A stretch of DNA of 64,000 nucleotides from an uncultured virus (IMG/VR IMGVR_UViG_3300027782_000041) (taxonomy: Duplodnaviria; Heunggongvirae; Uroviricota; Caudoviricetes), in IMG/VR virus record IMGVR_UViG_3300027782_000041; one strand, written 5' to 3'. A program made the translations under genes and the position numbers. Below the pieces are notes generated by a model. The model was not told the origin of the DNA, made no database searches, and worked only from the letters and a program-made list of their open reading frames with translations. Shown here piece after piece: positions 16,830-38,288 of this stretch. Every line of letters starts with the position of its first letter. Within the stretch, counting starts at the first letter, position 1.

Positions 16830-17579
16830 TTAAGAAGTAACGTTCTGTATCAAAGCCACGTTGATAGTGGTTTGTGCAGTACCTGACTTGATAACCGAGC
16901 CTTCGTCAGTGAAGAAGTTGGCCACTTGACGTGTGTCAGCAACAACTTCAGCAGCAGTGAATCCATTTCCGCCCTCAAAGCCCAACAAGAATTTGTTGGA
17001 CAACTTGGAAATAAACACTTCAGATGAAGTATCATCAATGTAGCTGATGCTCATCAATCCCACTGTTGGTGTTGCAGAATTTGTCAAAATACACACACCT
17101 ACAGAGTTGGCAGTACCTGAACCTGCTCCGCCTACGGCATTGGCAGTAAACACAGTGCCTACACCAAAGTTACCGGGTGCACCAGCGGCTGTCCAGTTGG
17201 TGGTACCCACAGACACAATCATGTATGCTTGACCAACAACAAAACTTCCGTCGTTGACAGTGGTAACAGATCCCACTAGATATTTGCGAGAACCTTTTTG
17301 GCGGATGATATAGCCTTGTGCCACACCAATACCCGAGCCCGAAGGGTTGGCAATGTTCACAGTGACGTCAACACGTGGATTGGTTGCTGACGGTGTATCT
17401 GTAGGACCTGCACCGCCAACCACACCAAGATATTGAGTGCCGTCTAGAGTTTGAACTGGGCTGTTGAAGACCGGGTTTGTTAAACTATTAAAGTTAGGAA
17501 AAGCAATGTCGACACTAACGGCTGCGCCGCTGTTGCCTGATCCAGTTGATGATTTTTGTATTTTTAGAGGACGACCCAT
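16830..17579 (-). CDS. Virion structural protein (possible capsid decoration protein)
   Basis: 249 aa, MGRPLK start, Gly/Ser/Thr/Val-rich. Strong AAGGAG SD, own TAAATA motif, terminator downstream. Lies downstream of the capsid gene. Confidence 0.55.
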   Translation of the reverse strand: MGRPLKIQKSSTGSGNSGAAVSVDIAFPNFNSLTNPVFNSPVQTLDGTQYLGVVGGAGPTDTPSATNPRVDVTVNIANPSGSGIGVAQGYIIRQKGSRKYLVGSVTTVNDGSFVVGQAYMIVSVGTTNWTAAGAPGNFGVGTVFTANAVGGAGSGTANSVGVCILTNSATPTVGLMSISYIDDTSSEVFISKLSNKFLLGFEGGNGFTAAEVVADTRQVANFFTDEGSVIKSGTAQTTINVALIQNVTS

Positions 17580-17671
17580 GTTTTTTTCTCCTTAAAGAAG
17601 TCCGATGCGAGTTCTAGTCGCTACGCTGTGGGTTTTAGTCTCAGCATAAAACACCCTATTGTGTTGACAAG

Positions 17672-29108: not shown

Positions 29109-29954
29109 ATGTCCCAAACTACGAACCCACTAAAACAATTTTTTAGACAACCAGCAATTTATTTGCGTTTGCCAATGAATGGCAAATACTGGCCCGATCG
29201 GTCAATTGATCTGCCAGAAAATCAAGAGCTACCAATTTACCCCATGACTGCCATAGACGAAATTACATACCGCACCCCAGATGCGTTGTTTAACGGACAA
29301 GCTGTGGTCAACGTCATACAAAGCTGTGTTCCGGCTGTGAAAAACGCCTGGTCCATCCCAGGTGTAGATTTAAATGCAATCTTGGTTGGCATAAGAATTG
29401 CCAGCTACGGACATGATATGGAAATCAATTCCAAATGCCCGGGCTGCCAAGCAGAATCAGAGTTCAACGTAGACCTGCGCATGATCCTGGATCAAATAAA
29501 ACAGCCCGATTATGATACCCCAATCAAGCAAGGCGATCTAGAAATTACCATTTGCCCCATCACCTACAAACACCAAAATGATATCAATCTACGACAATAT
29601 GATCAACAGCGTATGATTCAGCAAATACAGATAGACGAATCTCTAAATGATGAGCAAAAAGTTGAAGCCCTGAACAAGGCATTGCATCAAATTACTGAGC
29701 TCACAATCGAAACATTAAAATACAGCATCAGCAGTATTCGTGCTCGAGGCACGTTGGTCACTGAATCAGAATTCATTGCTGAGTTTTTGACCAACTGCGA
29801 TCGTAAGATTTATCAAGAAATTCGAGAGCGTGTGATCAACCTACGTGCCGAAACTGATCTCAAACCGTTTGATATTACTTGTCCAGAATGTGCGCACAAG
29901 CATCAACAAACTCTTACCCTGGATCAAGCAGCTTTTTTCGGGGTCGCCTCCTGA
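29109..29954 (+). CDS. gp26: Baseplate hub assembly protein (T4 gp26-like)
   Basis: IYLRLP, ELPIYPMTAIDEI, DLNAILVGIRIASYG and two CPxC motifs. Ends ...AAFFGVAS. Confidence 0.8.
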   Translation: MSQTTNPLKQFFRQPAIYLRLPMNGKYWPDRSIDLPENQELPIYPMTAIDEITYRTPDALFNGQAVVNVIQSCVPAVKNAWSIPGVDLNAILVGIRIASYGHDMEINSKCPGCQAESEFNVDLRMILDQIKQPDYDTPIKQGDLEITICPITYKHQNDINLRQYDQQRMIQQIQIDESLNDEQKVEALNKALHQITELTIETLKYSISSIRARGTLVTESEFIAEFLTNCDRKIYQEIRERVINLRAETDLKPFDITCPECAHKHQQTLTLDQAAFFGVAS

Positions 29955-29980
29955 CATTGACTCCTGAAGACATATCTACC

Positions 29981-30169
29981 ATGGTAGATAACATGGACAA
30001 GGAGGCACAAAGTATTCGTCGTCAAAGTTTAAAAATGTCGTGGTACATGCGCGGAGGCGCCACATACGAAGATGTTCTACAAATGAGTACACCTGAGCGT
30101 AAAATGCTAAGTGAACTGATCAAAGAAAATCTTGACACAACCAAATCGAGCAAATTGCCTTTCTTCTAA
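29981..30169 (+). CDS. gp51-like hub assembly protein, possibly translated as a -1 frameshift extension of gp26
   Basis: WYMRGGATYEDVLQMSTPER motif and position right after gp26. The frame is open upstream through the slippery site at 29933. No clear SD before ATG 29981. Confidence 0.65.
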   Translation: MVDNMDKEAQSIRRQSLKMSWYMRGGATYEDVLQMSTPERKMLSELIKENLDTTKSSKLPFF

Positions 30170-30669: not shown

Positions 30670-31100
30670 CTTATCAGTTTGCTAGAATTGATCTGAGCCA
30701 AACTGACTACAAGGAATCAGTCAAGTGGGAATACTTGCGTGAGCCAGACGTTGCCAAGCTGAATACTATCTATAGAGACTACTGCAAATACAAACACTTT
30801 GCCAGTGTCATGCCCATCTTTGATAGTCGTTATACTGATCCAATGACTGATGTAATTGGTTACTATGATCAAGACAAACTGGTTGCGTTCAGTTTAATTC
30901 GACGCTACGATGACAAGAATGCTCTGTGCGATCAATTTGCATGGAACTACAACAACCCCCGATTAAGATTGGGAATAGAAACAATGAAAACAGAGTGTGC
31001 TATCTACCGAGCTCGCGGTTTTAAGTACCTGTACCTTGAGCAAGCACACCTGTACAAATCCGAAATACAAGGATTTGAAATACTAGGACCACTGGAGTAA
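30666..31100 (+). CDS. Aminoacyl-tRNA-protein transferase C-terminal (ATE/Bpt-like GNAT) domain protein
   Basis: YYDQDKLVAFS...PRLRLGIETMKTE...GFKYLYL...YK mirrors the ATE_C pattern (kLvAv...P...sLG...E....G..ylYLG...YK). Confidence 0.6.
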   Translation: MTYQFARIDLSQTDYKESVKWEYLREPDVAKLNTIYRDYCKYKHFASVMPIFDSRYTDPMTDVIGYYDQDKLVAFSLIRRYDDKNALCDQFAWNYNNPRLRLGIETMKTECAIYRARGFKYLYLEQAHLYKSEIQGFEILGPLE

Positions 31101-31102
31101 CT

Positions 31103-31438
31103 ATGGATTTATACACAATTTGGGCAGACAAAGAAGGCGACATATCAGACCTCGACTGGGTCAACGGAATGAAAAGTTTCTTTGATCATTTGATCGACGA
31201 AGGCAAGATGGAGAGCTACAGAATCACTAGATGCAAGATGGGATTCCGTTCAATTGCTGACATGCCAGAGTGGATGATCATCATGGAGTTCACGGGTATG
31301 GCTCAAATGGATAGTGCTTTCAAACGGGTAGCACCACTTGAAGGTGAACTTGAAGTCAAACACAAAAGTTTCAATCAATTTGTCTCAGGCAACATACAAC
31401 ATGCCTTGTTTAGAGATTGGCCAGATACTAATCTATGA
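31103..31438 (+). CDS. DUF6614-like protein (probable dimeric alpha+beta barrel)
   Basis: MDLYTIW...HL..EG....YRITRCKMGF...AQMDSAF...H...ALFRDWPD pattern. GGAG SD. Confidence 0.55.
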   Translation: MDLYTIWADKEGDISDLDWVNGMKSFFDHLIDEGKMESYRITRCKMGFRSIADMPEWMIIMEFTGMAQMDSAFKRVAPLEGELEVKHKSFNQFVSGNIQHALFRDWPDTNL

Positions 31439-31859
31439 CATTCAAGACTTACTACGTAAGTCTGTTGTTTTCGCTATCGCTCAACAACTGATTGTTTCTC
31501 TAACTACTTGTTTTAAGTATCATCTAGATTAATTGGTCATAATTCACCGTATGCACGGTGAATATGAAAGAGCATCATCTGAGTAGCACAGTCATCTAAT
31601 AGTAATGAGATTGTAGTTTCCTACGCGGAGGCGGTTGACCGGTACCCCCTACTCAAGCTTCACATATCAACGGAACCCTAGTAACCCGATATTAGATCCA
31701 AGTTCTACGAGCATGGGGTGTATCTTCTTCACAGAGCCCAAACCATTTGTTGCCTTAAGTTAGCAATTGCCTTTGACGCCCAAGTCTAGACCGGGTATTT
31801 CACCGTTCCTCAATGGGGGTGAGCCAATACACTCACCACGTTGTCGTAATCGCTGCCTG
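31439..31859 (-). ncRNA. Candidate large structured non-coding RNA
   Basis: The only long intergenic gap in the window (421 nt). Densely packed hairpins, a GAAA tetraloop, long-range helices and possible pseudoknots. G-U pairs favour the minus strand. Confidence 0.6.
31445..31471 (+). terminator. Hairpin plus U-rich tract ending the plus-strand gp26 to DUF6614-like unit
   Basis: AGACTTAC-TAC-GTAAGTCT followed by GTTGTTTT, 6 nt after the stop at 31438. Confidence 0.5.
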
Positions 31860-32288
31860 TTAAATTTTGTTTATAATGTGTGAGCCATGCACCCTAACTT
31901 GGATGTGGCCGTTGTAATAATCTCGTGATTCCAATACTCGTCGGGCAAATTGTTCTCTTGCTTCGACATAACTACATTCAGATTTTGATCCGCAGTAGTA
32001 AAGTATTTCTCTGGTGAAGTTTTCGGTGCCTAGTTTGATTACGTCTGCGGTTAATTCTGGGCTTGACCCGTAGTACTCTCTCCAATCACTGTCGATCTTG
32101 GAGCGTATCTTCTTCCGCTTCTTTGTGCCGTTTTTTTGTTTTACAGTCTTGTATGTTGTTTTTGCGAATTTTGCTAATTTTTTGCCTATGTACTTGCGTC
32201 CAGTGAGATTACATGTGATCAAGTAAACAAATCCCACACACTCTTCGGGCAACGTCTCAATTGGGGTATCTTGATATAGCCATGTCAT
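31860..32288 (-). CDS. GIY-YIG endonuclease-family protein (stand-alone catalytic domain)
   Basis: GFVYLIT...GRKYIGKK, YYGSS, NFTREIL, conserved E and YYN, with a Lys/Arg-rich insert. No C-terminal DNA-binding repeats. Confidence 0.85.
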   Translation of the reverse strand: MTWLYQDTPIETLPEECVGFVYLITCNLTGRKYIGKKLAKFAKTTYKTVKQKNGTKKRKKIRSKIDSDWREYYGSSPELTADVIKLGTENFTREILYYCGSKSECSYVEAREQFARRVLESRDYYNGHIQVRVHGSHIINKI

Positions 32289-32328
32289 GTGTTGTATGCG
32301 ATTTATCCTTGCTGTATAGTTATCTCCA

Positions 32329-33339
32329 TTACCACGAAGTTGCGTAATTTTTGTCTACAAGCGAACTCGAGCATTTAGACTGGCATTCCTGCCATTTAAA
32401 CGTTTGAAACTCGTTGTTCCAAAAAGGATCTGTTAGTACGTCTGTTAAAGTTTTTTTGTGTAAATTAAAATCTTCTGCCAGTTGTTGCCATTGTGAGTTG
32501 TGATTGTAACGATTTGCAACCCAACAGCAAGGGAACAATCTGCCCCTAGCGTCAATGTACAAACCTTTGTTGCCTATTTCGCATAACGGAGTTACCCCGT
32601 TACGACTTCGAGTTTGATCGTATAATTCGATATTTTTTCTATGTACAGGAGTCCATGATCCGCGATAAGTTAATTCTGAAATTTCTCTTTCAAATCTATG
32701 ACTACCGCTGACAAATTTTACACTGGGTTGCAAAGGATCGTCTATGCCGTAACTAGGATAGATACTGCCAAATTTAGTGCTTTTGGTCAACTGAAAAACA
32801 TCAATGTCCAGTTGCTTTGCCAAGTCCCGCATGTGATCTAAACGATTTTCATTGAATCGAAAAGCAATAGCGGCCCAAACAATTTGACAATCACTTGCAC
32901 CACGCAAGGCAGAGATGCCATTGACAATACTTGCAAAGTCACTGTTCACACGATACAGATTGTTGCTGGCGTTGTCCCAACCATCTATGCTGAAATGCAC
33001 AGTATCACTGCTGTCCAAAACAGATCCCAATTGTGTCCACCACTCAGATTTTTTATGTGACCCGTTTGTGATAATGACAATCTCAATAGATTTTATACTT
33101 TTAAGATAGTTAATTATTGGAATCAAATCGTGTGCATAGATAGGATCACCGTCGTCACCACAGAATGTGATCTTCTCAACATTGTTTAACACAAACTCGG
33201 GAGTGAAATTACGTTGGAAGAATTCTAAGTCTAGTTCTGTGTTCACAAGACCGTCAGGAACTTCTTGACGGGCACAACGAGGACATCGTAAGGTACACTT
33301 GCTGGATATTTCAATATGGAAATGCCAAGTGGCTAGCAT
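32329..33339 (-). CDS. Radical SAM protein with C-terminal SPASM/twitch domain
   Basis: CTLRCPRC, TNG and FSIDG motifs. C-terminal CEIG...FPCC...CQSKC. Confidence 0.9.
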   Translation of the reverse strand: MLATWHFHIEISSKCTLRCPRCARQEVPDGLVNTELDLEFFQRNFTPEFVLNNVEKITFCGDDGDPIYAHDLIPIINYLKSIKSIEIVIITNGSHKKSEWWTQLGSVLDSSDTVHFSIDGWDNASNNLYRVNSDFASIVNGISALRGASDCQIVWAAIAFRFNENRLDHMRDLAKQLDIDVFQLTKSTKFGSIYPSYGIDDPLQPSVKFVSGSHRFEREISELTYRGSWTPVHRKNIELYDQTRSRNGVTPLCEIGNKGLYIDARGRLFPCCWVANRYNHNSQWQQLAEDFNLHKKTLTDVLTDPFWNNEFQTFKWQECQSKCSSSLVDKNYATSW

Positions 33340-35102
33340 TATGCCATCTCAACGTCAGTATTGTAACTGGTAAAACCATTCTCTTTTATCACTTTAAGAA
33401 TGTTCTCCACACGCCCGGCCAGTTCATCTCTGTGTGAAACAAGCCAGATTGACTTGTGGCGTTCTCTACTCATCTTTTTCAGCAAGGCCAGTGCGTTCTC
33501 CACACCCTGTGTGTCCAAGCCGTTGTCAATCAGCTCATCAATGAACAACAAGTTGATTGGTGAATATAAACTTTCCCATACATCACGGAATGCCCATGAC
33601 ATTGACAAGATCAATCTGTTACGCTCGCCTCGACTCAAGTTATCAAAGTCTAGTTCACGTCCTAGTTCTTCAATGCTCACAGTCAGATCGTTTTGAAACT
33701 TCACAGTATGCGGCAGGCCAATGCGATCTAGATAGTGTGTGAGCCGTGAGTTTAGATAACTTAAATTCTGATCAATAATTTTCTTGCGTACAAAACTGTC
33801 TTTGCTTGTCAACAGTTTGAGCAAGAAGTCTTGATGATCTTGCAAACGAGTAAGTTCGTTCAGTGTGTCATATGACACAACTTGTAAGGCTTGGCCTTGC
33901 ATGTCTGAGATTTGTTCTTCGTAAGTATCTATGTCCGCAGAGCGTGAGGTTAGATCTTTGCGTAGTGTTTCCACGGTATTGCGATGATTCAGTGCTTGTT
34001 CTAACGAATCATAAAACACAGTGGGTGCAGTTCCCAACGCACCAACCTGAGTGATAGTATCTTCATGCCCTTGACGTTGTGTGTCGTTGGCTAAAAGTTG
34101 TAGTGCTGTTTCTTGTATCGAAGCTTGTTTGGCCTGTTTCAATTCATCCTGTTTGTCATCGTGCAAGTCTTGACCACATGAGTGACACTTATGAGCATCC
34201 AATGCTTCAATTTCTGTTTTGAGTTTATCTAACAGTCGATTTAGTTTAGCATCGTCTGCGTCAATTTGACGAATGTACCGCGTGGCATCATCGAGAGATT
34301 TTTTCTTCACATGAAATGCTTCTAGATCTCTATGTGCTTGTACTTCGGCATCAATATCAATATGTTCAAGATCCGCAATGGCCTGTTGTAGTTTGCCTAC
34401 ATCCTCGTCACGCTTGGCTGTCCACAGACGTTGACGTTTGCGCAGACTTTCAATCTGTTCTTCAATACGTTTGTTGGCTTCTTGCACAGCACGTATGCGG
34501 AACTCTTCTGCTTGAATAGCATCTTTGGTCTGCCGGTTGAGTTCTTTGATTGCATCAGCACGTTCACTCAGCAAGGTAATACCCAACAACTGCTCAATAA
34601 TAGTTCTTTGGTCATTAGCCTTCAAACTTAGGAACGGTTCTGTATAAGTGTTCAATGCCAGCACATGTCGGAACATGTCATGGCTCATGTTCATTACACG
34701 CTCGATGGCATCTTGTGTTTCCCTTGAATCGCCTTGTGCCTCGTCTTCGGCAGCCTTGTGTTCGTTGTTGACGTAGAAACGCAACACATTGGGCTTGCGC
34801 CCGCGCTCAATTCTGTATTCTTGTCCGTTGACATTAAAATCTAAACTGACCAACATGTTCTTGCCGTTGGTCTTGTTTACTAGATTGTCCTTGCGGATGT
34901 TTGATAATGCTTGCCCATACAGGGCATAACTCAAGGCATTGATGATTGTGGTCTTGCCGGTGCCGTTGCGTGAGCCATCACCGCCAAGGTCCAAGTTTTC
35001 ACCTAATACCAAGGTCAAGTCATTACGGTCAAAGTCAATGCCCTGTGTGGCCGCACCCACACTCATGAAGTTTTTAACAGTTAAATTTTTAATTTGAATC
35101 AA
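33339..35102 (-). CDS. gp46: Recombination endonuclease ATPase subunit (T4 gp46 / SbcC / Rad50-like)
   Basis: Walker A NGTGKTT, CHSC zinc hook, LSRGE signature, Walker B LLFIDE and VSH. TTG start with GGAG SD. Confidence 0.95.
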   Translation of the reverse strand: MIQIKNLTVKNFMSVGAATQGIDFDRNDLTLVLGENLDLGGDGSRNGTGKTTIINALSYALYGQALSNIRKDNLVNKTNGKNMLVSLDFNVNGQEYRIERGRKPNVLRFYVNNEHKAAEDEAQGDSRETQDAIERVMNMSHDMFRHVLALNTYTEPFLSLKANDQRTIIEQLLGITLLSERADAIKELNRQTKDAIQAEEFRIRAVQEANKRIEEQIESLRKRQRLWTAKRDEDVGKLQQAIADLEHIDIDAEVQAHRDLEAFHVKKKSLDDATRYIRQIDADDAKLNRLLDKLKTEIEALDAHKCHSCGQDLHDDKQDELKQAKQASIQETALQLLANDTQRQGHEDTITQVGALGTAPTVFYDSLEQALNHRNTVETLRKDLTSRSADIDTYEEQISDMQGQALQVVSYDTLNELTRLQDHQDFLLKLLTSKDSFVRKKIIDQNLSYLNSRLTHYLDRIGLPHTVKFQNDLTVSIEELGRELDFDNLSRGERNRLILSMSWAFRDVWESLYSPINLLFIDELIDNGLDTQGVENALALLKKMSRERHKSIWLVSHRDELAGRVENILKVIKENGFTSYNTDVEMA

Positions 35103-35171: not shown

Positions 35172-36311
35172 TTATGTTTCTAATTCTAAACATTGTACCA
35201 ATTCCGGGAATGTTTTCCTTACATCTAAATCGCGTCGCTGATCCAACGGTGCAAGAAAATCTAACAACATTTTTTTATTAACTGTTGCATTTCTAGTATT
35301 CAAACTACCTAATAAATTTTTAATAACCGGATGATCAATGTGCTGGATCTGTTTGCTAATCCAAGACTTTACCTGCTCATCAAAATTAAATATGTTCAAC
35401 ATCGCAGGATATTCTAACATGTTCATAAACAAATTTAAATCACGCCGCTGACAATACTCTACAATTTCATGGATGTATCCAATTGATAACACGCTGATAG
35501 TAGATATAACAGTTAACTCTAACTTGGGTACAGTTTTCTGTAAATTTTTGTAGTAGCTAATAGTCGAATCAACTGTATTCCATTTACCCGGAAATCGCAG
35601 ATATTCAAACCTATCGCCTATGCCATCAACACTGACGTTTATTTCGATAGCCTTAAATGACGACCAAAACTCTAACTGTTCGGTTGGCAATCGTGTACCG
35701 TTGGTGTTGTATTTGATTCTGATGCGTCCAGCGTACTTGTTATCGACCAACCATTTTAGCAAATTGGCTTGAGTATCAATATGCATCATAAACGGCTCGC
35801 CACCTATGAATTCTATACTACCAATAGTGTTGGCATTTTTTTTTAAATGTTCCCAAACATCGTGATCGTCGGGAATTATTGATGTTGACGTTTTAGTGGC
35901 TATGTTAAATTTTTTATTTTCACTAAGCCAGCCGGTACTTAAAGAATCATTGCAACTGGTACATCGTAAATTGCAATGGTTTCCTAATCTGAGATAGTAC
36001 TCAACAAATTTACCGTGTGGAACATCAAGATCTTTGTTCAGTAGTTGAAAAATTTTGCCGTATGTTTGGTTATCCCGTTGTCTCTTACTAATATGCCCAA
36101 CTTGTTCTTGTTTCCAACACACAGTACATTCTGAAATTTGTTCACCTGCTAACAGGCGTTTTTTGATAGATGAAAGTTCTGGACTGCTGATGTAATCATC
36201 AACTGCTTTATATTTTAACGTATTGCCAAACAAGCAACATGGATTAAATCCTTCTGTAATTTTGGTATGCAGAGATACCCATGGATTGACACAGAATGTT
36301 TTTGGATTCAT
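35172..36311 (-). CDS. Radical SAM protein with N-terminal twitch/SPASM-like Cys cluster
   Basis: CVNPW...PCC...CTVC, then CNLRCTSC, GGEP, YNTNGT and SVDG. Visibly AT-richer than its neighbours. Confidence 0.9.
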   Translation of the reverse strand: MNPKTFCVNPWVSLHTKITEGFNPCCLFGNTLKYKAVDDYISSPELSSIKKRLLAGEQISECTVCWKQEQVGHISKRQRDNQTYGKIFQLLNKDLDVPHGKFVEYYLRLGNHCNLRCTSCNDSLSTGWLSENKKFNIATKTSTSIIPDDHDVWEHLKKNANTIGSIEFIGGEPFMMHIDTQANLLKWLVDNKYAGRIRIKYNTNGTRLPTEQLEFWSSFKAIEINVSVDGIGDRFEYLRFPGKWNTVDSTISYYKNLQKTVPKLELTVISTISVLSIGYIHEIVEYCQRRDLNLFMNMLEYPAMLNIFNFDEQVKSWISKQIQHIDHPVIKNLLGSLNTRNATVNKKMLLDFLAPLDQRRDLDVRKTFPELVQCLELET

Positions 36312-37324
36312 AGAGTTTGATAAATCTTTAACAGTAATTTGTTATCGTAAAACTCAGACTCAATGTTGGTAAGCTGATCAGTAACAATCTGATCCACAGA
36401 TTCAAATTTAATTTCACCGGGTGCCATGTCTGTGTCTACTGAACTGTTTTTGTTTGGAATCAAAGCCATTTCTCTTAGGCCATACTCCTTGATATAAGTT
36501 TCCTTGATGAAGTTGGCTTCTTCGTATGAAATTTCAATGTCCAACTGCACCCGAACATGCATGTCTTTTGCAAGTAAAGCAGGTGCGTTGTCAATTATAC
36601 TGGCCAGGCCCAGCACACGATATCTTGGTTGATCTGGCCAAGCATGATATTCTGGCTCTTTGCCCCACTCTAGTATCATCATGCCACGTTCGTCGTCTCC
36701 GGCGTCAGCATAGTTGTGCGGAAAGCAATTGCCAATGTAGGTAATGTTCTTTTTGGTTTGACGTTTGTGAAAGTGTCCGGTAAACACATGCTCAAAGTTT
36801 GTGAAGTCTTCTCTACGCACTTCACCGTGATCCGGCATCTCTACCATGGCATTCATTAAATACCCGGGCAGTTCAAAGTGCCCAAACATGTACTTGCCTT
36901 TTAGTTTGGGTATGCGTTTGTGGTCATCGGCTACAAGCCAAGGAGCAATGACAACATCACCACTGCTAAACCAATCGTTACATATCTGTACGCGGGGGAG
37001 ATGCTTTGCCCATTCCACACTTTGTATGTCGCGCTTATCTCGATAATACAAATCATGATTACCAGGAATGAAATACACGCTTTCAAAATTATCATTCATG
37101 TGCTCCAGTGCCCTGAGGCTGTAGTTTAGGGTAACAATGTTTAGGCTGGCACGGTTGTTGTGCCAGTCACCAAGAAACATGCAGGTTTCGCAACCTTCGG
37201 CCTTTGCTTTGGCAGTTGCCCACTTTACAAAATTCAAGCAGTCCTCATTGTGTTGAGTGCTGTTTGATTTGAGTCCAAAGTGAATGTCTGTGAAGATCGC
37301 GGCTTTACGAAATAGATTTGTCAT
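36308..37324 (-). CDS. gp47: Recombination endonuclease nuclease subunit (T4 gp47 / SbcD / Mre11-like)
   Basis: Metallophosphoesterase motifs DIH, LGD, GNHD, GH and GHFH. Confidence 0.95.
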   Translation of the reverse strand: MTNLFRKAAIFTDIHFGLKSNSTQHNEDCLNFVKWATAKAKAEGCETCMFLGDWHNNRASLNIVTLNYSLRALEHMNDNFESVYFIPGNHDLYYRDKRDIQSVEWAKHLPRVQICNDWFSSGDVVIAPWLVADDHKRIPKLKGKYMFGHFELPGYLMNAMVEMPDHGEVRREDFTNFEHVFTGHFHKRQTKKNITYIGNCFPHNYADAGDDERGMMILEWGKEPEYHAWPDQPRYRVLGLASIIDNAPALLAKDMHVRVQLDIEISYEEANFIKETYIKEYGLREMALIPNKNSSVDTDMAPGEIKFESVDQIVTDQLTNIESEFYDNKLLLKIYQTL

Positions 37325-37336
37325 CCTACTAGTATA

Positions 37337-38233
37337 CTACTCATCGAGGCTGCTTACGACCGGTCCGGACATGGCAGCCATAGAATGTTTGCCCGAGTTC
37401 TGACGGGTCCATGAAGGATTGAGTCCGTTCATCTCTAAAATGTCATCACGTATGTTTTGATTTTTCTTTTCTATGTTCAAGATACGAGTGAAACTATTAG
37501 TGATAGCGGCAGTATAATACGCAAAAGGGTTCTGCGATTTTGACTCATCGAACTGGAGCCCGATTTGACTGAGTTGTAGCAAGGCTTGGCCTCGCATTTC
37601 TTCGTTGTATGTGTATCCACGCCAGTTACTCCTTGTAGCATATCTTTCGCATAATTTCATAAACATCAGGGCCAGTTTCTTGGTCATGTCACCGTGATCC
37701 TTGGAGAACTCTCCTGTGGCCAAATCGCCACGCCAGTGACTACGACCCACAATAAACAGTTTCTTGTCTTCATCCAGCCGAAAGTGTTCAAACGGTGGGA
37801 AGTTCACACGCACATGGTTCATATCCAGCACAGGAATGTCTATGATATCTGCCAATGAATCGTCTTCTACCACATCATCTAGATCTAAAATTTCTTCTAG
37901 CTTTCGCTTTTTTGCTTCGGCCTTGGTAATTTTTTTGGGTGCCTTGGGTATGTGATCCCAACAGGTGATACGGAACACAATTTCGGTGTTGGGAATTTTT
38001 TTAGGATCTACAATGGTACCTTCTCGCTTTAAACGGTCTGCTCGGTTGCGTCGGGCTTCGGCAATGGTACGCTGATTGATTTTGTCTATAGAAGGCAAAA
38101 TAATATCAAACTGATGATCAATTGCTCTGTCTTGATACCAACAGTAGTTGTTTTTACTGAGGTGAATTTCTTTTAAAATATCTCTGTTGTTGAGATAATT
38201 GACACGAGGTGCTGCTTTGGGTAATAAAGTCAT
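37337..38233 (-). CDS. gp55: Late-transcription sigma factor (T4 gp55-like)
   Basis: NYLNN, NWRGYTYNEEM, FDESKSQNPFAYYT...NSF.RIL..EKK motifs. Start moved to ATG 38233, which has an AGGAG SD, because the ORF-track start overlaps the promoter. Confidence 0.9.
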   Translation of the reverse strand: MTLLPKAAPRVNYLNNRDILKEIHLSKNNYCWYQDRAIDHQFDIILPSIDKINQRTIAEARRNRADRLKREGTIVDPKKIPNTEIVFRITCWDHIPKAPKKITKAEAKKRKLEEILDLDDVVEDDSLADIIDIPVLDMNHVRVNFPPFEHFRLDEDKKLFIVGRSHWRGDLATGEFSKDHGDMTKKLALMFMKLCERYATRSNWRGYTYNEEMRGQALLQLSQIGLQFDESKSQNPFAYYTAAITNSFTRILNIEKKNQNIRDDILEMNGLNPSWTRQNSGKHSMAAMSGPVVSSLDE

Positions 38234-38260
38234 GTGTGACCGGTCTCCTAATATGTACTT

Positions 38261-38288
38261 ATTGTAGCACATTTACAACAGTTGTCAA
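38261..38288 (-). promoter_or_regulatory. Sigma70-type promoter for gp55
   Basis: TTGACA-N16-TACAAT with an extended -10 TG motif. Confidence 0.7.

Follow-up and report, generated by a model that had tools for sequence, protein, structure and literature searches.

A conserved structured RNA gene with duplicated sequence boxes next to a GIY-YIG gene in T4-like phages

In RNA II of plasmid ColE1, an upstream single-stranded, G-rich loop of the transcript pairs with the downstream template DNA, and the persistent hybrid primes replication; the G and C runs lie about 245 nt apart, and the sense strand carries a direct repeat. The GOLLD and ROOL RNAs are located beside tRNAs. In the sections of Weinberg et al. 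(2010; PMC2864571) available to us, Polynucleobacter-1 (RF01718) is an orphan motif from Burkholderiales and from fresh water and estuary, and its supplementary alignment holds 16 sequences, one of them in RefSeq, and lists a single chromosomal copy. Here, we analyze a 64,000-nt stretch of DNA from an uncultured virus (IMG/VR record IMGVR_UViG_3300027782_000041), referred to as the window, which is part of a T4-like phage genome. A 421-nt gap at positions 31439 to 31859, free of open reading frames (ORFs), separates the convergent genes for a DUF6614 protein (31103 to 31438, plus strand) and a GIY-YIG protein (31860 to 32288, minus strand). The comparative evidence shows that this gap encodes a conserved, autonomous structured RNA gene of about 400 nt on the minus strand. 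An earlier note on this DNA had pointed out the gap within otherwise coding sequence, listed hairpins and long-range helices for its minus strand, and proposed an ornate noncoding RNA (ncRNA) outside the known classes that might form a ribonucleoprotein (RNP) with the nuclease, act as a ribozyme, or be associated with an origin. Its observation of the gap is partly confirmed and its interpretation partly supported by the data presented below.

The RNA of the window represents one of three classes (class A, the window's kind, and classes B and C) that occur behind the same GIY-YIG gene. The first 140 nt of class B are Polynucleobacter-1 (122, 120, and 94 bits in loci L062, L013, and L033). In class B phages, this motif stands exactly where the window has its 5′ domain, immediately behind the GIY-YIG gene, and then comes the same module as in the window, i.e., GGUACCGG.CAACCGCCUC, a first sequence box, a hairpin, UGACC, a second box, a GA hairpin, and the terminator. 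The Rfam model spans 141 nt at the beginning of the class B RNA; the shared 3′ module lies entirely outside it. The RNA of the window differs from Polynucleobacter-1 in the sequence and helix layout of its 5′ 230 nt and does not match the model even at an E value of ≤10 (cut-off, 37 bits). More generally, Rfam 15 yielded nothing in the gap, neither in a scan of the window at the gathering thresholds nor in one of positions 31200 to 32400 at E ≤ 10; this includes the models for GOLLD, ROOL, HEARO, OLE, raiA, RNase P, transfer-messenger RNA (tmRNA), and group I introns, in line with the view that the RNA lies outside the known classes. ARAGORN detected neither a tRNA nor a tmRNA in the gap. With GOLLD and ROOL, the RNA shares its large size, many conserved junctions, and a phage context, but it has no Rfam match, it is smaller (about 330 to 400 nt), and its position within a T4-like gene order is constant. 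Like the HEARO/OMEGA systems of IscB and TnpB, the locus combines a large structured RNA with a small nuclease gene beside it; unlike these systems, it lacks an Rfam match and a variable guide of ≥16 nt, its nuclease is of the GIY-YIG rather than the RuvC/HNH type, the protein does not covary with the RNA, and the pair can be separated by other genes. A group I intron carrying a GIY-YIG ORF was rejected, as there is no Rfam match and no interrupted host gene: the preceding gene has a stop codon of its own 40 nt before the GIY-YIG start, and the downstream gene lies on the other strand. A type III toxin-antitoxin RNA of the ToxI kind was likewise discarded, only two partial units with differing middles being present; no type III toxin family was named in general scans of eight neighboring proteins against Pfam and PHROGs and of 41 other window proteins against PHROGs. 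Searches of an open-access library found no description of class A, which is not proof of its absence; judging from the accessible part of Fremin et al. (2023; PMC10690425), class A may be among the candidate viral RNAs reported there. Previous knowledge is confined to a 141-nt piece of the sister class B. New findings are the complete extent of the RNA, its home in phages, its division into three classes, the fold with its pseudoknot, and the twin-box rule described below.

Relatives were collected in two ways. With the GIY-YIG protein as the query, 591 relatives were retrieved from IMG/VR, of which the best 80 (L001 to L080, 77 to 98% identity) were used. For 37 of them, blastn aligned 250 nt or more of the gap at 80 to 94% nucleotide identity, the matches mostly beginning a few bases after the GIY-YIG stop codon. 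Independently of the protein, an invariant 21-nt motif of the gap gave at least 120 matching stretches; the 80 loci taken from this search (L081 to L160) lie partly on the same contigs as L001 to L080. Both searches combined yielded 102 distinct full-length sequences with 65 to 95% identity to the window, and two alignments were used, one of 32 sequences (A1) and one of all 102. Among 185,579 species genomes, the 21-nt motif was present in only two contigs (L201 and L202, 148 and 183 kb, scoring 469 and 453 bits against a class A profile), both from one metagenome-assembled genome labelled Haliscomenobacter; given their sizes, they are probably phage contigs misbinned into a bacterial genome. 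A blastn search with positions 31000 to 32400 against 50,697 phage records returned no match.

The minimum free energy of the single gap sequence was no better than that of shuffled sequences (z = -0.92 for the minus and -1.44 for the plus strand). Since folding energy is thus uninformative, the claim that the gap folds more than expected by chance rests on comparative data, and the hairpin list of the earlier note would not by itself have exceeded chance. The comparative signal is strong. RNAalifold predicted 87 pairs for the 32 sequences, 33 of them with compensatory double changes. After refinement by mutual information on the 102 sequences, the model comprised 97 pairs in 19 helices; counted on A1, these positions were 97.9% paired (90.3% in shuffles), and 37 of the pairs showed changes on both sides; in 500 shuffles, 21.5 ± 2.1 such pairs were obtained, and none of the 500 reached 37. 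When the 3′ partners were slid by one to three columns as a control, only 3 to 7 pairs changed on both sides and pairing dropped to about 40%. Within the 102 distinct sequences, 1022 G-U cells stand against 66 A-C cells, and this asymmetry fixes the minus strand as the RNA strand, as proposed earlier. A coding signature was not found: 86 of 569 indel runs are multiples of three, and the variable columns are spread evenly over the three phases (44/44/46). The main elements of the fold are as follows, with RNA position p corresponding to window position 31860 - p on the minus strand.

31515-31847, minus strand: pseudoknotted RNA core of about 330 nt (RNA positions 13-345), conserved at 80-94% nucleotide identity in 37 of 80 loci
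31775-31845, minus strand: 5′ domain with closing helix GAC/GUC (15-17 with 83-85), supported by covariation
31683-31766, minus strand: three hairpins, UUGC-UAACUUAAG-GCAA (31766-31750), 31746-31707, and 31704-31683, with covariation in helices 5-9
31656-31678, minus strand: predicted hairpin GGGUUCCGUUGAUAUGUGAAGCU (helix 11), near-invariant and the most conserved stretch; invariant in A1 and used as search motif
31606-31655, minus strand: three-way junction closed by UGAG/CUCA (205-208 with 251-254), with covariation in helices 12, 13, and 15
31594-31597, minus strand: 3′ strand UAGA (263-266) of a pseudoknot with the hairpin loop AUCU (163-166; 31697-31694), helix 10

The 5′ domain contains the hairpin 31837-31818 and a helix CCCA/UGGG with the hairpin 31809-31788, and the three-way junction encloses GGGGG..CCUCC (31649-31627) and a GNRA hairpin (31624-31613). 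Individual pairs illustrate the covariation among the 102 sequences: in the closing helix, pair 15-85 is GC in 90, CG in 10, and AU in 2 sequences, and pair 16-84 is AU in 96 and GC in 6; pair 120-146 occurs as UA (51), GC (37), and CG (9), pair 158-175 as CG (88) and UA (13), and the pseudoknot pair 165-264 as CG (49), UA (46), UG (6), and CA (1). For the predicted hairpin GGGUUCCGUUGAUAUGUGAAGCU, the pairs never vary, so that it gives no covariation signal. The local hairpins named in the earlier note recur in this model. In A1, both-side changes were seen in five of seven pairs of GGUGAG/CUCACC (31837-31818), in all four pairs of GUAG-GAAA-CUAC (31624-31613), and in one of nine pairs of AUUCACCGU/ACGGUGAAU (31563-31542), the others being invariant; the stems UUGC/GCAA, GGGGG/CCUCC, and AACUUGG/UCGGGUU are supported as well. 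The long-range contacts proposed there fared worse. Instead of the helix GGAAC/GUUCC, AAC covaries with a local partner (pair 55-68: CG 74, UA 14, AU 12) and GUUCC is invariant; the helix UGAGUAG/CUACUCA is replaced by pairing of position 205 with 254 (UA 53, AU 48, AA 1) and of 211 with 233 (GC 78, AU 24). A pseudoknot between two UCUAGA segments, one of them part of the second box, was chosen by RNAduplex for box 2 in 35 of 102 sequences and rejected, as 28 of the 102 have a C-A mismatch at its pair 72-335, for which covariation is absent. The candidate pairing GGUCA/UGACC (31640-31636 with 31539-31535) could form in 100 of 102 sequences, but its two strands hardly vary. An inner stem of 3 bp competes with it, and in class B the first strand reads GGACA while UGACC stays the same. 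Three supported long-range contacts, GAC/GUC, UGAG/CUCA, and the AUCU/UAGA pseudoknot, had been absent from the earlier list.

At its 3′ end, the RNA of all classes has a module with a constant order of elements: UGRCUR, 5 to 6 nt, CUC, a 7-nt box, 8 to 12 nt, a hairpin, UGAC(C/U)A, 5 nt, UCU, the same 7-nt box, an A-rich linker, the GA hairpin, and a final hairpin. In the window, these elements are located as listed below.

31572-31583, minus strand: box 1 (CUC + AGAUGAU + GC), 7-nt core 31580-31574
31542-31563, minus strand: inter-box hairpin AUUCACCGU-GCAU-ACGGUGAAU (helix 16), followed by UGACC (31539-31535)
31517-31528, minus strand: box 2 (UCU + AGAUGAU + AC), 7-nt core 31525-31519
31489-31516, minus strand: A-rich variable linker, median length 23 nt (12-43), 76% A+T, 58% A
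31464-31488, minus strand: GA hairpin GUUGUU-GA-GC-GAUA-GC-GAA-AACAAC with an internal loop of tandem G-A and a GNRA loop; shared by the three classes
31445-31463, no single strand assigned: terminal hairpin (helix 19, covariation), end of the minus-strand RNA

The A+T content of the linker contrasts with the 54% found both in the core and in the window. Both-side changes support all six outer and both inner pairs of the GA hairpin (helices 17 and 18), and the inter-box hairpin has 7 to 10 bp with a class-specific stem sequence. The terminal hairpin also scores as an intrinsic terminator for the plus strand, i.e., for the DUF6614 gene, with 8 pairs followed by GTTGTTTT.

The two boxes follow a simple rule. 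A pattern search gave 108 distinct hits, of which two were chance matches in coding sequence with two mismatches each and 106 were real modules. The two boxes are identical to one another in 100 of these 106 modules and differ by one mismatch in the remaining six, although 15 box variants exist across the classes. The box-to-box distance is 51 to 58 nt, with a modal repeat period of 55 nt, and the repeated unit can be written as UGAC-N6-CUC/UCU-box, about 24 nt in length. On a tree calculated from the alignment with the box regions masked, position 280 in box 1 requires at least 22 changes and position 335 in box 2 at least 23, while their joint state requires only 23; for positions 284 and 339, at least 10 and at least 11 changes compare with a joint count of 11. 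Control purine pairs of equal variability, one of them located between the boxes, gave joint counts roughly equal to the sum of both. Mutual information of every RNA column with positions 280, 284, 335, and 339 disclosed coupling from box to box only and no complementary column, and no exact complement of the 7-mer recurred at the same location within 2.5 kb. Nor does the window show an enrichment of the box pattern (3 matches versus 1.84 expected; 28 of 100 shuffles reach 3), and third copies of the 7-mer further downstream were dismissed as chance matches within coding sequence. Readings of the boxes or the GA hairpin as small ORFs, stop codons, translational hops, CsrA sites, hammerheads, or k-turns were judged by eye and dropped because some variants lack the codon or motif needed. 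As far as can be judged from the sequences, the boxes must carry the same letters even at apparently neutral A/G positions and have no pairing partner within the RNA.

The existence of three RNA kinds became apparent because the class A profile matched many GIY-YIG loci only in their 3′ part in nhmmer searches. By our own labelling, with 5 of the 80 loci offering too little downstream sequence for classing, class A is present in 37 loci and in 6 divergent ones, class B in 18, and class C in 14. Class B shares sequence with class A from GGUACCGG.CAACCGCCUC onwards, and class C has only the last part in common with it. Compensatory changes were observed in 24 of 73 predicted pairs of class B and in 17 of 79 of class C. 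Of five long virus records, the one with class A (346,856 bp, terminal repeats, 100% complete) contains it a single time, and the two records each of classes B and C gave no class A match, two of these four being 95 to 99% complete; the classes thus act as alternatives at a single locus. An ORF of 88 amino acids with a CxxC motif separates the GIY-YIG gene from some class C RNAs (L001, 3426 to 3689; also L003, L039, L025, L041, and L042); it has no Pfam match and is absent from other class C loci, such as L007.

The protein encoded upstream of the RNA was assigned to Pfam PF19835 (SegE_GIY-YIG; E = 6.5e-33, residues 3 to 129). An AlphaFold (AF2) model based on a 63-sequence alignment reached a predicted local distance difference test (pLDDT) value of 96.7, and the Lys/Arg-rich stretch forms a long β-hairpin (residues 40 to 66) in this model. 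The fold matches the catalytic domain of I-TevI (Z = 8.5, root mean square deviation of 2.8 over 83 residues), the GIY-YIG restriction enzyme PD-T4-3 (Z = 7.2), T4 EndoII (Z = 5.6), and the N-terminal domain of UvrC (Z = 5.4). Foldseek found no PDB match of the model at E ≤ 0.001, and the sole row from a sequence search of the PDB was at chance level (E = 0.41). By its sequence and model, the protein is a member of the GIY-YIG superfamily consisting of a bare catalytic domain. More than 8000 clusters at 90% identity were scored for this family; 2025 representatives at 50% identity matched it at E ≤ 0.001, nearly all of the 150 listed being 72 to 190 amino acids long, and 486 records of cultured phages, cyanophages for the most part, contain homologs with less than 60% identity. 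Judged by this protein, the nearest cultured relatives are the Methylophilales phages Melnitz, at 49% identity. The homolog is located behind ribonucleotide reductase genes in Methylophilales phage Melnitz and phage C48C1, and the profile detected no RNA downstream of the homolog in these two records and that of Acidovorax phage ACP17.

In the clade of the window, gene and RNA are always associated. An RNA with the 3′ module was present in all 73 GIY-YIG-fetched loci having at least 431 nt of downstream sequence (in L054 as a variant read by eye, with UGAGC for UGACC). Of the 80 loci found with the RNA motif, 72 carry the GIY-YIG gene upstream on the same strand, six have less than 500 nt upstream, and two have no GIY-YIG gene. 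The spacing between gene and RNA is at most 164 nt in 57 of the 72 loci, and genes of 0.8 to 2.0 kb in total are inserted in the other 15. In the two loci without a GIY-YIG gene (none within 2.5 kb upstream), a PD-(D/E)XK endonuclease (PF24608; phrog_244, labelled RusA-like resolvase) is encoded upstream of the RNA instead (L141, 2690 to 3202, minus strand; L155, 3492 to 3998, minus strand), and the converging baseplate-hub gene is retained. On the GIY-YIG protein tree, the RNA class changes at least 19 times, compared with a mean of 34.4 and a minimum of 29 for shuffled labels, and the proteins of L004 (class A) and L005 (class C) are 100% identical. Boxes and inter-box hairpins also differ beside near-identical proteins.

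We tentatively prefer, at well below even confidence and by analogy, a mechanism resembling that of ColE1 RNA II, in which the RNA would be an RNA:DNA pairing device (R-loop or pre-primer). The folded core would leave box 1 single-stranded; once the DNA at box 2, which lies 55 nt downstream, is opened by RNA polymerase, the box 1 RNA would pair with the template strand there and seed a lasting RNA:DNA hybrid over the adjoining A+T-rich stretch, which might prime DNA synthesis or otherwise mark the locus, while the hairpins could form on the RNA or on the displaced DNA strand of the same sense. Pairing of box 1 RNA with the template at box 2 requires the same sequence in both boxes, and identity without a complement is what such pairing predicts. 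Only two sites have to change together, and this economy, along with the ColE1 and T4 R-loop precedents, is why we favor it. A protein reading both boxes was set aside since it leaves the matching at apparently neutral positions unexplained, and template jumping by a polymerase since it needs a reverse transcriptase, none of which was named in the general scans of the window proteins. The likeness to RNA II is a functional analogy: the RNA is a long multi-hairpin transcript in which an upstream RNA segment equals a downstream segment of the sense strand (100 of 106 modules), and the twin boxes plus the A+T-rich stretch would fit the logic of RNA II. It differs in having no sequence or family relation, in its mixed boxes of 7 to 9 nt placed 51 to 58 nt apart, and in residing in a large lytic phage rather than a plasmid. 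According to the parts of a published account of T4 replication at hand (PMC3016281), T4 starts replication from R-loops at some origins, one of which carries 12-nt direct repeats. The options of the earlier note being compared, the origin-associated RNA is the one left most alive by the evidence. An equally bold alternative would be that the twin boxes are a duplicated programmable guide with which a nuclease reads an outside DNA site.

Several observations weigh against an R-loop or pre-primer. The locus is a point of transcriptional convergence, unlike the T4 origins, which are reported near transcriptional divergence in the same partial source (PMC3016281). The boxes span only 7 to 9 nt, and the three bases preceding them always differ (CUC versus UCU); the six modules with one mismatch show no consistent direction, and at 280/335 the intermediates combine an A in box 1 with a G in box 2, a state that would produce an rA-dC mismatch. 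A single role in cis does not obviously call for three 5′ domains so different from one another. On the minus strand near the RNA start, a promoter scan found no σ70-like promoter. Finally, contigs from RNA libraries have to be considered. Sixteen RNA-library runs, mostly labelled as fresh water or lake, contained 8 to 19% of the words sampled from 2.1 kb around the gap. In the four runs examined, assembled contigs cover the GIY-YIG gene and positions 31587 to 31887, cover of 31439 to 31586 is near zero, and no joint skipping the inter-box segment was seen; RNA cover ends at 31587 and 31626 in runs of two studies, i.e., 5′ of box 1. One contig of run X2 (depth of 23, no mismatches over 31587 to 31768) stops at 31587, which is RNA position 273, between UGACUGUG and CUACUC-box 1, and continues into adapter-like letters, which we take to be Illumina adapter. 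A stop 5′ of box 1 does not fit a primer end at box 2 and gives a weak hint of an RNA end just 5′ of box 1; the contigs come from libraries possibly holding DNA and indicate presence only, neither expression level nor reliable RNA ends. The candidate TATAAACA near the GIY-YIG stop codon was discarded, as it falls within the coding region and is missing from loci in which the RNA is preceded by other genes.

The R-loop or pre-primer has to be weighed against explanations that account for the same features differently. A possible, though doubtful, one is that the RNA acts in trans as a scaffold or regulator, the boxes being duplicate seed or guide elements for one outside RNA or DNA target of phage or host. 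It would account for the identity of the boxes without an internal complement, and the A-rich linker followed by two 3′ hairpins is the layout of many bacterial small RNAs; the highly conserved loops and junctions also suggest tertiary contacts or binding partners. However, three sites would have had to change together at least 22 times among close relatives, a host target is not expected to flip between A and G so often, and no candidate partner was found, neither box nor complement being enriched in the window. That the transcript is a precursor cut by a ribozyme or an RNase at both repeated units, releasing the core and two products that each start with a box, namely a hairpin RNA of 55 nt and a small RNA from the 3′ end, appears rather unlikely: the units of about 24 nt do repeat with a modal period of 55 nt, contigs from the two studies stop at 31587 to 31626 just 5′ of the first unit, one of them in an adapter-like end, and the complexity and invariant junctions are ribozyme-like, but no ribozyme family matched at E ≤ 10 in Rfam, cutting by a single enzyme leaves the box matching at neutral A/G positions unexplained, and the contigs, with their near-zero cover of the 3′ module, cannot define RNA ends. 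Very improbable in our estimation is a passive 3′ untranslated element that stabilizes the upstream mRNA or aids termination where two transcription units collide. Its position at the very end of the unit, directly before the shared terminator hairpin, and a metatranscriptome contig (31757 to 31887) bridging the GIY-YIG stop codon into the RNA would suit this role, whereas about 330 nt of pseudoknotted, near-invariant sequence in three classes exceed the needs of known 3′ stabilizers and the twin boxes would have no explanation. It is scarcely conceivable that no RNA is involved and that the gap is a protein gene, either decayed or with unusual coding, or a site acting only as double-stranded DNA; stop-free stretches of 35 to 112 codons (median, 60) do exist in some frame of the core, but the lack of three-base periodicity, the mostly non-triplet indels, the 37 compensatory pairs, and the asymmetry of G-U over A-C speak against it.

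A partnership with the adjacent GIY-YIG protein, the RNP idea of the earlier note, is unlikely in our judgment, whether the protein is RNA-guided, RNA-inhibited, or uses hairpin and boxes as a structured single-stranded target. The constant presence of the 3′ module behind the gene, the short spacing in most loci, and the bare catalytic domain with its basic β-hairpin would agree with it, and a precedent is given by single-domain GIY-YIG Ssn enzymes, which, according to the consulted part of the study (PMC11893778), cut structured single-stranded DNA repeats (NTS) flanking their own genes. It argues against an Ssn/NTS-like pair that identical GIY-YIG proteins adjoin different hairpins and boxes, and proteins that are identical or 98.6% identical stand beside different classes; the class changes on the protein tree and the identical L004 and L005 proteins make a nuclease-specific RNP on the variable 5′ domain very unlikely. 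As a binding site common to all classes, the 3′ module alone would come into question, and its boxes and hairpin vary as well beside near-identical proteins. The inserted genes in 15 loci, the PD-(D/E)XK gene in place of GIY-YIG in two, and a family present in 486 cultured-phage records with the RNA in none of the three checked argue in the same direction. The adjacency of gene and RNA is explained by the conserved gene order gp46-GIY-YIG-RNA-DUF6614, since synteny alone predicts it. The GIY-YIG protein does not look like a specific partner of the RNA; it looks like a neighbor through gene order.

The genes around the RNA are listed below; complete records of this phage group are about 345 kb long.

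37337-38272, minus strand: gp55-like late sigma factor
36308-37324, minus strand: gp47/SbcD
35172-36311, minus strand: radical-SAM gene between gp47 and gp46
33339-35102, minus strand: gp46/SbcC
32329-33339, minus strand: second radical-SAM/SPASM gene
31860-32288, minus strand: stand-alone GIY-YIG protein of 142 amino acids, upstream neighbor of the RNA
29109-29954, plus strand: baseplate-hub gene (T4_baseplate), followed by three small genes and the DUF6614 gene (31103-31438)

The RNA gene is the last element of the gp55-gp47-gp46-GIY-YIG transcription unit, before the hairpin it has in common with the converging baseplate genes. Across loci, the order of the flanks is gp46, variable genes, GIY-YIG, variable genes, RNA, variable genes, and DUF6614. 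The radical-SAM/SPASM genes between gp47, gp46, and GIY-YIG differ among the phages (L001 to L160), with 22 to 84% identity or complete absence, and this variation in presence and kind marks the stretch as a gene-gain hot spot. A minority of the phages has ORFs of 200 to 356 amino acids between GIY-YIG and the RNA (L008, 3440 to 4453; L056, 3365 to 4435; L085, 1412 to 2302; L090, 1475 to 2329; L105, 1541 to 2317; L118, 1500 to 2330; L157, 700 to 1305); they have no Pfam match, and by our own reading of their N-termini some start like SGNH/GDSL hydrolases. In L006, an ORF on the RNA strand is situated about 170 to 540 nt past the terminal hairpin, between the RNA and DUF6614; its N-terminus resembles that of a classical GIY-YIG homing endonuclease (YVYAY...YYIGKGKG), and a similar ORF lies upstream of GIY-YIG in L108. 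Elsewhere in the window, the baseplate-hub ORF (29109 to 29954, plus strand) overlaps a 96-amino-acid ORF in a different frame (29879 to 30169, plus strand), and a freshwater-2 RNA (17577 to 17666, minus strand; 64.3 bits, E = 1.7e-07), the sole Rfam match of the window at the gathering threshold, is located directly upstream of an ORF on the same strand (16830 to 17579).

Large, highly conserved orphan RNAs are rare, and several have proved to be ribozymes or RNA parts of new molecular machines. The RNA described here is abundant, with at least 120 motif stretches, at a fixed place in many giant phages of fresh water and lakes, and it extends the orphan motif Polynucleobacter-1 into a much larger RNA. 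The twin-box rule provides a simple, testable handle; should RNA-DNA pairing prove wrong, it would still indicate an unknown partner. What could be at hand, and we hold this to be possible rather than probable, is a newly built replication or priming device, i.e., a large folded pre-primer RNA in three versions whose matched boxes would lock the transcript onto the template DNA and start an R-loop at a set position in a T4-like genome of 345 kb. In the available portion of the T4 literature source (PMC3016281), a defined origin element is lacking for most origins of T4-like phages. If the RNA does pair with DNA, the T4-like phages would gain a defined, sequence-readable R-loop or origin element.

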